Shown in pieces: positions 1-3,000 of a stretch of 6,764 bases of DNA. Source of the DNA: a virus (Duplodnaviria; Heunggongvirae; Uroviricota; Caudoviricetes); IMG/VR virus record IMGVR_UViG_2531839104_000020, positions 1 to 6,764 of that record. The stretch is one strand, 5' to 3'. Position numbers: made by a program. Position 1 is the first letter of the stretch. Each line of letters opens with the position of its first letter.

Positions 1-3000
1 AGGCCATCGTTGCTGGTGGATTTGATGATCACTTCTACATCGTCATAACGTTTACTGACACGTCGCAGCATTTCTTGTTGCAGGGCAGGAACAGAACCTT
101 TTGGCATTTTGTTGATTTTGGCTGCGGGGTATCTGTGGGGCATATATGGGACATAAAAAGGCCTCAAATAAACAGCAAAATCGAGATTAGGGATTTTTAG
201 AAAAAATACAACCATCTGAAAAAACTTAGAAAACACCCAAAAACCCACAGAATAGTAAAAAACATCTATGAATTATGGATTTCAAGAGTCATTCAATCTA
301 ACTAATTGATAAATAAAAAATTAACTTTTCATCGCTTCGTTATGGGGCATGGTTGGGGCAAACTCGCTTAACTGTGTATTTAACAGCGTTACCTGCGCAT
401 TATTATTTTCTGACATCCATTTCCCGTACACCTGAAACACCATTTGCGCATCTGCATGGCCCATCTGGTTTGCAATGAATGCCGGGTTAGCTCCTGCTGT
501 TAACGACCAGCAGGCATAAGTGTGTCTCGACTGATACGATTTGCGATGGCGGATTCCGGCACGCTTTACCGCTGCGTCCCACATCTGCCTTATTGAGTCA
601 ACGGTAAAATGGTCGCCATAATTTTTTACTTTCGCTGACACTTCAGGTTGAAAAACAAAGGTACATTTTTGTTTCTCTGTTCTGCCGAATTCTCTGAGGT
701 GAACATCGATGATATGCTCTTTGCTCAGTCTCGTTAGTGCCATCTGACTCCGGAGAGCGTCGATTGCGGGCTTAATAAGGTGAATCACACGATTGGTTCC
801 CGCCTGTGTTTTTGGTACTGTAAAACGGTCTTTTGCCAGATTTCTTCTGATTATCATTCTGCCATTGCGCAAGATGGTTGCGGTTTTTCTTCATCATTTT
901 CTTCTTCTGTTTCCTGCTTAGCAGACAGTTCGCGGTTAACTTCTTCCAGGATATCTTTTTCCGGTGTATGTCGTGCAGCAGTGAGAGTTTCCTTGCTGGG
1001 GTTCTCGTGATCAGTCTCCGTTAAGTAGGCGTTGATATACCCCTGAAGGCGTCCCGGGTAGTGATAAAACTCAGGGTGAGCGCTCCGGATAAGTGCAAAA
1101 ATAGCGGCGCGGGAATAGTCCAGAATACCCGGGGTTGCGCGAAGTGCTGCGGACCATTCTTTGAACGGACTTTCTCTTTTCAGGACGATTTCTTTTGCGC
1201 GACGATAAACGCTGCCCGGAATTTCATAAATATTAAAATCCATCGGAAGTGTGGCTGCTGCAATCTCCACATCCAGCGTATCGAAGGTGTGTACTAAATT
1301 CGGATTGCGATCGGTTTTGTTCCCGCCACCGGCATTTGCACCGGAAGCCGTACGGGTGATACGCGAAACACGATTTCCTTTCATCCACTCTTTTGTCAGC
1401 AGACCCCGATCAGTGTAGTCAGCGTCCAGGTATGCCTCGAAAAAAGCAGTTATCAGTCCCAGGTCTGAATTACCGGGATTAGGGAAAACTTTGTCAGTGT
1501 CGCGTACCAGTTTGTGAAGGTCGCGAATCTCCAGCGGGTCGAGCAGCTTTGTTTTGTGAGAAATGGCCAAGGCAGTAACAGCCGGCAGTTCTTCCGCCCG
1601 TGCTATATGTAATGCCTGAAGTTCTTCCCGTGCAACGTGCGTTACTGGTTTTTCGCTGCCGTGTTGCGCAAGCCAGCGAATGGGCAGCTCCTGACCAGAA
1701 ACCGGCAGGAGCATATTCTCCTCAATCTCCGTCATGTCTTCGCCGTTGACGTTGGTATTGTCAGTACTGGCTGGTTTCTCCTGCACGGAGGGAGAGGGCG
1801 CGATAAATACCATTGTAATGCCATCTTCCCCGCCTTTTTCGTATCGGTTGCAGAATTCGGTATCAAACACGCCTTCAGGTGGAAGGTCATTCACAACGGG
1901 TAAATGGACGCGAACGGGTTTTTTAAAGTCGTCTTCATCATAATCGTTGTCATCCATTGCGGTAATGCAGCGGGAGATGGCAACAGATAATTTTTTTGCT
2001 GTAGTCCAGTAAAAACCACCTTTAATTCCCAGACGTTTTCTGACTTTGTCATTTTTTGCTTCGCAATATAGCGCAAATTCTTCTTTATCAGTGCTCATTG
2101 ATAAACCTCATTACAGATTTAAGGGTGAACAAATCCCTGCCATTGCTGGCATTTTTAATCCGTTGGTATGGTGTTAATATGGCTGGAGGGTTATCCAGCC
2201 GGTGTTTCGTTATTCAGGTACAGCGATACTTTTTTTACCGGGAGGCATTCACCAGAAATTTTTTGCTCGTCTCTTGCCTGGAGGCAGGATTCTTTACTGG
2301 CATAAATTCCGGTAATCACATTCTGTGATTCACCCGTTATAAGAAAAACCGTCATCATCAGTGCAAATGCTGAAGTCATTGACGTTCTCCGAAAATACCA
2401 AGTTCAAGAAGAGCAATTCGGGAAAGTATGGAATTATCATTGAGCAGATAAGGCTCATATTTCCTCATGTTAATGGCATCTTCAGTAAACTCCCGGTTAC
2501 TGAGCAGAACACCAATATCAAAACAACCTTCAGACGTATTAACGTTTGGTAATAACGTTTCCATTATCGCGTCCTCAACAATGAATTTTGTGATGCAGTG
2601 CCTGGTGCCTCCAGGTGACGTTAACCAGTTAACAATTAACGTCGGGTTAGTTGATGCTCGTTACGCCAGTAAAAGACCGCCTTACTGCTTTAACTGTTCC
2701 GCGTGCGCATAGCCGCATTCACCGCATCACAAAATTCACTTTAAAAAGGGCGGATATCCATTTCCGCCGAATCACCAGAAAAGTGATAACAGAGGTTGTT
2801 GTGGCTGGGGTGTCACTTAAGCGTATGGTCAACCTGACAACCCGGTGTCCTCAACGGGGGAAGGAATAACCCCTCCATACTTACCGCCGCGCCATTTCGC
2901 GGATTGCCACAACCGGAAGCGCACGGTCGACGAAAATTTAACGACAGGCTATCTATGAACCAGCTACCTCGCCGTGCGCTTTCGCGTTATGGTCTGACTT

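Follow-up and report, generated by a model that had tools for sequence, protein, structure and literature searches.

Truncated genes at the left end of the prophage

The DNA analysed here, referred to below as the window, is one stretch of 6,764 nucleotides (positions 1 to 6,764 of IMG/VR virus record IMGVR_UViG_2531839104_000020). The int-proximal end of the prophage lies at 267..320, where an att-containing boundary separates it from Sp12, the prophage next to it: homology with an intact prophage adjacent to rspB and with K-12 Qin starts at about position 267, and the Sakai annotation places the border between Sp11 and Sp12 at about window 282/283. Two remnants are encoded next to it on the minus strand. 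The first one, int' (321..857), corresponds to the part of an IntQ-type tyrosine integrase gene (431 aa) from codon 254 to codon 431, together with its stop codon (323..321), and the second one, exo' (854..2098), is a reading frame of 414 codons ending with a TGA at 856..854. They share the four bases 854..857, which read ATGA and are made of the first ATG of int' (857..855) and the exo' stop. From a TTG start, the int-frame open reading frame extends over 321..872 (minus strand) and encodes 183 aa, as compared with 178 aa from the first ATG; upstream, the frame is closed by an in-frame TGA at 891..893 (minus strand), inside exonuclease-derived DNA. The arrangement described in the initial annotation (frame 321..872, overlap of ATG 857..855 with TGA 856..854, in-frame TGA 893..891) is thus present in full, both in the sequence and in the list of open reading frames.

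The exo' frame is made up of about the first 413 codons of an ExoVIII-like/YdfE-like gene of about 820 codons, one glutamate encoded by the junction with the integrase gene and a TGA supplied by int DNA, and it has a plausible Shine-Dalgarno (SD) sequence, GAGG, 8 nt before its ATG. In Pfam searches, the intact 820-aa exonuclease carries PF06630 (Enterobacterial exodeoxyribonuclease VIII) at residues 57-189 and the Rv2179c-like 3'-5' exonuclease domain PF16473 at 639-810. The remnant keeps the PF06630 region whereas PF16473 is deleted, and exo' is consequently without the C-terminal half of the pair that characterizes ExoVIII-like/YdfE-like proteins. The upstream gene had initially been taken as an unrelated neighbour, a view that needs correction, as it is the 5' half of the 820-aa exonuclease gene and was cut by the same deletion.

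A single deletion joins the exonuclease and integrase genes

Intact relatives of the locus were found by megablast of the window against complete E. coli genomes. One is a prophage of the O157 strain FDAARGOS_293 (L001) and the other one (L002) adjoins rspB, the attachment position of K-12 Qin. Both have the order int (1,296 nt, 431 aa), xis (252 nt, 83 aa), exo (about 2,460 nt, 820 aa), a DUF1482 gene and dicB. Window 1..866 is 99.65% identical to L001 3001..3866 and window 854..3062 is 96.2% identical to L001 6176..8393. Base-by-base alignment sets the junction at 858|859, positions up to 858 being collinear with int and positions from 859 onwards with exo of the intact relatives. What is missing from the window is a single deletion of 2,321 bp (L001 3859..6179), which is the exact sum of 758 bp of int, a 19-bp spacer, the 252 bp of xis, a 72-bp spacer and 1,220 bp of exo. 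At the junction the two parental sites share an exact microhomology of 1 nt within an 18-nt stretch with 12/18 matches. No IS remnant was found in the junction alignment at 858|859, and an IS-mediated deletion, of the kind seen in K-12, was consequently rejected.

The five codons that extend the int-frame reading frame upstream (858..872, minus strand; TTG CGC AAT GGC AGA) were assigned by alignment of the junction with both parents and by translation. They do not stem from the integrase but from the exonuclease gene, in a frame other than its own, base 858 at the junction fitting either parent. In tblastn searches with the proteins of the intact relative, the window returned Int 254-431 with 100% and Exo 1-412 with 99.8% identity, while Int 1-253, Xis and Exo 413-820 left no trace in any of the six frames (best E 0.054).

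These searches bear directly on the reading that a gene of full length was made to look truncated by an artefact of sequencing or assembly (frameshift or collapsed assembly). The initial annotation had named in-frame N-terminal domains just upstream as the observation that would overturn the truncation, and the missing part of Int, like Xis, is absent from all six frames. In addition, a 241-nt query spanning the junction matched 225 of 5,426 complete E. coli genomes over its full length at 100% identity, and the 414-aa exo' fusion product has exact copies in more than 3,500 assembly blocks. Since 225 genomes finished independently of each other, and thousands of assemblies, have the same junction, sequencing error is ruled out and the artefact reading is refuted, with practically no probability left to it. 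The genomes listed with the junction are of serotype O157 wherever a serotype is named and include EDL933, Sakai, Xuzhou21, SS17 and SS52. An exact search with 36 nt across the junction gave no match in a one-genome-per-species collection. The junction is strain-specific, and it offers a clean marker for the Sp11-type left arm in O157:H7.

With high confidence, the left end of this defective lambdoid prophage, of the Qin/Sp11 type, is considered to carry an inert deletion scar. One deletion of 2,321 bp, most likely by illegitimate recombination, fused exo codon ~413 to int codon 253/254 out of frame. It took at once the nuclease domain of the exonuclease, the entire xis gene (and with it any pI-like int promoter), as well as the arm-binding and core-binding domains of Int and the ~48 residues with which its catalytic domain begins, Arg-I included. 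The exo frame now meets a TGA two codons into int DNA, which overlaps the native Met254 and creates ATGA. By this single step int, xis and exo were inactivated together and the prophage was probably locked in place.

The integrase remnant lacks Arg-I and both DNA-binding domains

The int' product is 100% identical to residues 254-431 of WP_001206148.1, the integrase of the L001 prophage, and both its high identity and its position at the prophage end place it in the IntQ/Sp11-type orthologue group. Some related co-resident integrases are intact, such as that of L001 in FDAARGOS_293. In the intact protein, Pfam places the PF12167 arm-binding domain at residues 9-71 and the PF00589 (Phage_integrase) catalytic domain at 206-397, and from residue 85 onwards the SAM-like core-binding family PF14659 is matched below threshold. 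Residue mapping by alignment with the Tn1549 Int structure (6EMY) identified Arg-I as R235, within TGIRPGEL. The remnant is still significantly recognized as a tyrosine recombinase by PF00589, its residues 13-149 matching profile positions 52-165 of 172 with 36.5 bits (cut-off 27.1); the intact orthologue matches positions 4-165 with 69.1 bits. About the first 50 positions of the profile are therefore missing from int'.

The residues kept are K269, the Y361-x-x-R364 box, H387 and the nucleophile Y397. Those absent are Int 1-253, encoded by the front 60% of the gene: the arm-binding and core-binding domains, R235 and the ~48 residues with which the catalytic domain begins, M254 being located 19 residues after Arg-I in a domain that starts near 206. 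Consequently, int' has neither the complete active-site set (Arg-I, Lys, His/Tyr-x-x-Arg-II, His/Trp, Tyr) nor the heterobivalent N-terminal domains of lambda-type integrases. The N-terminal truncation, with loss of the arm-binding (PF12167) and core-binding regions, had been recognized initially from the sequence, and the probable loss of the first active-site Arg is confirmed by the position of R235 upstream of the truncation point. The description of the remnant as reduced to its catalytic domain is correct as to the truncation, but the domain itself is incomplete, starting at 254 instead of ~206.

Isolated catalytic fragments of tyrosine recombinases that are active, such as the lambda Int C-terminal domain, comprise the whole catalytic fold with Arg-I. 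Like the lambda domain, int' would be a C-terminal polypeptide bearing the Tyr nucleophile; in contrast to it, int' starts 19 residues past Arg-I and its catalytic domain is incomplete. Because it is without Arg-I, both DNA-binding domains and about 48 residues at the start of the catalytic fold, the fragment is expected to be capable of neither catalysis nor site recognition, and its stable folding is doubtful. If made at all, the int' polypeptide would be catalytically dead. The coding sequence shows no secondary decay, as indicated by its 100% identity with the intact orthologue, which fits a recent deletion and is not independent evidence of neutrality.

Alignments to Rac IntR and Qin IntQ had been proposed initially as a means of mapping the truncation point. 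The remnant aligns with IntR (K-12 b1345) residues 252-411 at 52% identity, both being of the same integrase subfamily; IntR, however, is full length (411 aa) and has an adjacent xisR excisionase gene, whereas the window holds no equivalent of IntR 1 to ~250. Rac is reported to be excision-proficient (PMC4632033). As for IntQ, the intact orthologue of int' (the L001 Int) shares 94% identity with the truncated K-12 protein IntQ', and the DNA of the remnant (window 269..866) matches the K-12 Qin locus with 90.8% identity.

The ATGA overlap originates from the deletion junction

The overlap of the exo' stop with the first ATG of int' had suggested initially a geometry permitting coupled translation. 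The overlap itself is real, but the part of the claim that treats it as a coupling device did not hold, the four bases being located on junction 858|859 and the ATG being without an SD. The intact int gene reads ...AAT GGA ACA ATG ATA ATC... at this place, the ATG of the overlap being the native internal Met254. Across the junction, the exo frame reads ...GCA ATG GCA G|AA TGA, where the last G still belongs to exo and AATGA comes from int, shifted by one base relative to the int frame; this TGA, two codons past the junction, is where the exo frame first runs into a stop. The intact relatives have xis and some 2.3 kb of DNA between exo and int, and the ATGA overlap exists only with the deletion. 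As regards the features of a coupled gene pair, the four-base overlap is therefore there and its conservation among relatives is not. Because it lies on the deletion junction of two genes which are 2.3 kb apart, with xis between, in intact relatives, the overlap is an accident of the out-of-frame fusion and not an evolved coupling signal.

The frequency of such an accident was estimated by simulating each position of the intact int gene at which a junction would be out of frame. A four-base overlap of ATG and TGA was obtained in 1.8% of the simulated junctions, one with a start codon of any kind in 4.4%, and an in-frame ATG at most 10 nt from the stop in 8%. The ATGA overlap is, by this measure, an uncommon yet unremarkable accident that was noticed post hoc.

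Signals for expression were also searched for. No SD-like motif was found in the 30 nt before ATG 857, and no sigma-70-like promoter on the minus strand of 1..2400. In lambda, the pI promoter is located within xis, and any equivalent int promoter would by analogy have been removed by the deletion together with xis. The int' remnant comes last in a leftward operon, dicB-ydfD-exo', whose repressor is 63% identical to K-12 DicA, so that this operon is likely repressed by a DicA-like protein. Termination-reinitiation can occur at four-base overlaps of a stop and a start even when a strong SD is lacking, and a low-level 178-aa polypeptide from ATG 857 could conceivably still be produced. It would arise at low level only, if at all, by reinitiation on read-through dicB-ydfD-exo' transcripts once the DicA-like repressor is relieved. 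A literature search on the expression of the Sakai loci ECs2216/ECs2217 returned only an SNP table and nothing on their expression.

On these grounds it is very unlikely that ribosomes finishing exo' reinitiate at Met254 to make a 178-aa fragment with a role, such as interference or assembly with related integrases of co-resident prophages, or binding to core-type sites. The four-base overlap does exist, some automatic gene callers produce a 178-aa product from this ATG, exo' has its plausible SD and the fragment retains K269, R364, H387 and Y397. Nevertheless, the overlap was made by the junction and is missing from every intact relative, ATG 857 has no SD of its own, and the fragment is without Arg-I, the ~48 first catalytic residues and both DNA-binding domains; the operon in which the locus comes last is moreover likely repressed, and 2-4% of out-of-frame junctions would show the geometry by chance. 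A specific form of the idea, in which derepression of the early-left operon would yield through the accidental ATGA a fragment acting as poison subunit or decoy for related co-resident integrases and altering their excision, is likewise given very little credence. A designed-looking ATGA overlap may thus be a by-product of an out-of-frame deletion, and caution is called for in reading such overlaps.

A known pseudogene pair in a prophage probably unable to excise

Both open reading frames are pseudogenes, and the prophage is without a working integrase or excisionase of its own; with int truncated and xis absent, it lacks what an excision-competent lambdoid prophage has. In EDL933, the PGAP annotation already lists the pair as pseudogenes (EDL933_RS35145 / EDL933_RS09880), int' as an incomplete 'tyrosine-type recombinase/integrase' with the N-terminus missing and exo' as an incomplete 'RecE family exodeoxyribonuclease' with the C-terminus missing. 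In Sakai, the exonuclease pseudogene ECs_2216 (2202273..2203517) and the integrase pseudogene ECs_2217 (2203514..2204050) are located within 'prophage Sp11' and show the same four-base overlap (2203514..2203517) as the window; prophage Sp12 begins there 38 nt past the int' stop, with a DinI-like gene. The int'/exo' pair is therefore already known, as an annotated pseudogene pair of Sp11 in E. coli O157:H7.

In Sakai Sp11, Int has been described as disrupted, Xis as absent and the ExoVIII-type recombination function as disrupted; excision was predicted to be impossible, and neither a circular form nor replication nor packaging was detected (Asadulghani et al. 2009; PMC2669165). The lack of excision is taken from this work on the identical Sakai locus (PMC2669165). 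These data concern Sakai Sp11, of which only the left 2.6 kb is identical to the window, the immunity/replication region being different. The initial proposal of a prophage that cannot excise is supported on two counts, namely the absence of xis in tblastn and the lack of circularisation of Sakai Sp11 (PMC2669165).

K-12 Qin is of the same prophage type and has the same order of dicA, ydfA, ydfC, dicB, ydfD, exo and int towards the rspB side. Its scar consists of ydfE', an IS2E remnant and intQ', and the 3' half of the exonuclease gene, xis and the 5' end of int have been lost there too. It differs from the scar in the window by the IS2 remnant, there being no IS in the latter, and by the extent of the loss, about 35 N-terminal Int residues against 253; IntQ' thus retains Arg-I and the entire catalytic domain, unlike int'. 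The Qin scar is independent of the window/Sp11 deletion, which makes the latter a second independent loss of int-xis-exo at the end of this type of prophage and fits the notion of prophages locked in place.

Whether this loss was favoured by selection is a question compatible with the deletion scar as main explanation. Locking the prophage in could benefit the host, as in domestication, for example by retaining prophage cargo and removing a costly excision/recombination module. In line with this, the scar has reached fixation in the O157:H7 genomes listed, the module was lost independently in K-12 Qin, in association with IS2 and leaving ydfE' and intQ', and the scar-bearing left arm persists where the immunity/replication region was exchanged. 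Clonal inheritance within one serotype, however, explains fixation without selection, and two independent losses are few for a module at a prophage end, where deletions are common. Fixation by selection is consequently regarded as improbable, though less so than a functional fragment.

With the inert deletion scar as the preferred reading, the practical consequence concerns annotation. The 178/183-aa frame is not an integrase and the 414-aa frame is not an intact gene, and some automatic calls err on both. Beyond correct annotation the importance of the scar is small, the int'/exo' remnants being an ordinary pseudogene pair.

Recombinant origin of the window

Window 1..2641 is identical to the EDL933 locus, and the junction, the 414-aa frame, the overlap and the DinI-like neighbour in Sp12 are common to the window and to Sp11 of Sakai and EDL933. 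From window 2642 rightwards the sequences depart from each other, and Sp11 has a truncated S24 repressor where the window has the DicA-like one. Window 2642..3102 has no close match at any of the loci compared. A scan of the window with Rfam at the gathering threshold gave no match, and in a permissive scan of 2300-4000 STnc100 alone came up, below threshold, with no DicF.

Window 3103..6699, on the other hand, is 99.7% identical to the immunity/replication region of the ompW-adjacent prophage of other O157 genomes. Searches of the complete E. coli genomes with the whole window, and with 600-4400, found no record holding the entire window. Because no complete E. coli genome in the collection has it entire, the window comes from a recombinant between two resident lambdoid prophages, with the left part of Sp11 joined to the immunity region of the ompW prophage. 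Such an origin fits the reported recombination involving Sp11/Sp12 and the ompW-side prophage (PMC8190617), as well as the large prophage-mediated rearrangements that have been reported (PMC8743559).

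Mosaic composition of the window

Sequence comparison with the prophages of O157 strains indicated that the window is a mosaic of an Sp11-type left part and an ompW-prophage-type right part. Its left 2.6 kb (1..2641) are identical to Sp11 of O157:H7 Sakai, while the right 3.6 kb (3103..6699) share 99.7% identity with the immunity and replication region of L013, an ompW-adjacent prophage of O157 strains. Between the Sp11-like left and the L013-like right lies a divergent crossover zone of about 460 bp (2642..3102), located upstream of dicB. Since the whole window was found in one piece in none of the complete E. 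coli genomes of the collection searched, an inter-prophage recombinant or a rearranged strain is suggested as its source.

At the left end, the minus strand (1..143) carries a DinI-like gene that starts with an ATG at 143..141 and continues past the window end, so that only its 5' part is included. Its counterpart in Sakai is ECs_2218, with which the neighbouring prophage Sp12 begins, and the window therefore crosses a tandem-prophage boundary. According to the Sakai annotation, the border between Sp11 and Sp12 falls at window position ~282/283, and homology to the rspB-adjacent intact prophage (L002) and to K-12 Qin starts at ~267, where a 1-nt difference in a T-run is seen. The segment ~267..283 should be where two prophages with the same type of integrase adjoin in tandem, and should contain the putative att site.

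Intact and scarred arms in the same genome

Two copies of the arm are carried by the O157 strain FDAARGOS_293 (NZ_CP022050.2). The first, L001 (~5.25 Mb), keeps the int-xis-exo arm intact, with the same IS66/IS256'/DinI surroundings, and the second, H28, located elsewhere on the chromosome (~4.97 Mb), is the deleted-junction version, so that one cell can hold both the intact and the scarred forms of the arm. In the whole-window search, the same intact-arm match as L001 was obtained with two further O157 genomes (H18 and H19).

Immunity, replication and dicB regions

The immunity region comprises a DicA-like repressor (3978..4385, minus strand; 63% identity to K-12 DicA), a P22-Cro/YdaS-like protein (4462..4689, plus strand) and a YdaT-family protein (4673..5224, plus strand) with a start that overlaps the stop region of cro. 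This immunity region represents the same type of switch as the one studied in another O157 cryptic prophage (PMC8630535). On the plus strand, the long ORFs listed for the DnaT-like replication gene (5121..6236) and the lambda-P-like gene (6025..6690) overlap each other; because the versions annotated in relatives are shorter (1,041 nt and 462 nt respectively), these long ORFs are probably upstream extensions made by the ORF finder.

In Rfam scans, a sub-threshold match to the sRNA STnc100 was obtained on the minus strand (2532..2750), covering the dicB start and extending upstream of this gene; it scored 29.5 bits (E = 4e-4), where the gathering threshold is 47. Although dicF is found at the equivalent place in K-12 Qin, no DicF match was obtained anywhere in the window.

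Near the C-terminus of the truncated exonuclease product (exo'), a Glu-rich run (~905..925, minus strand) reads EEENDEE compared to EEEENDEE in L001, a length difference of one codon (GAA) which looks like short-repeat slippage.
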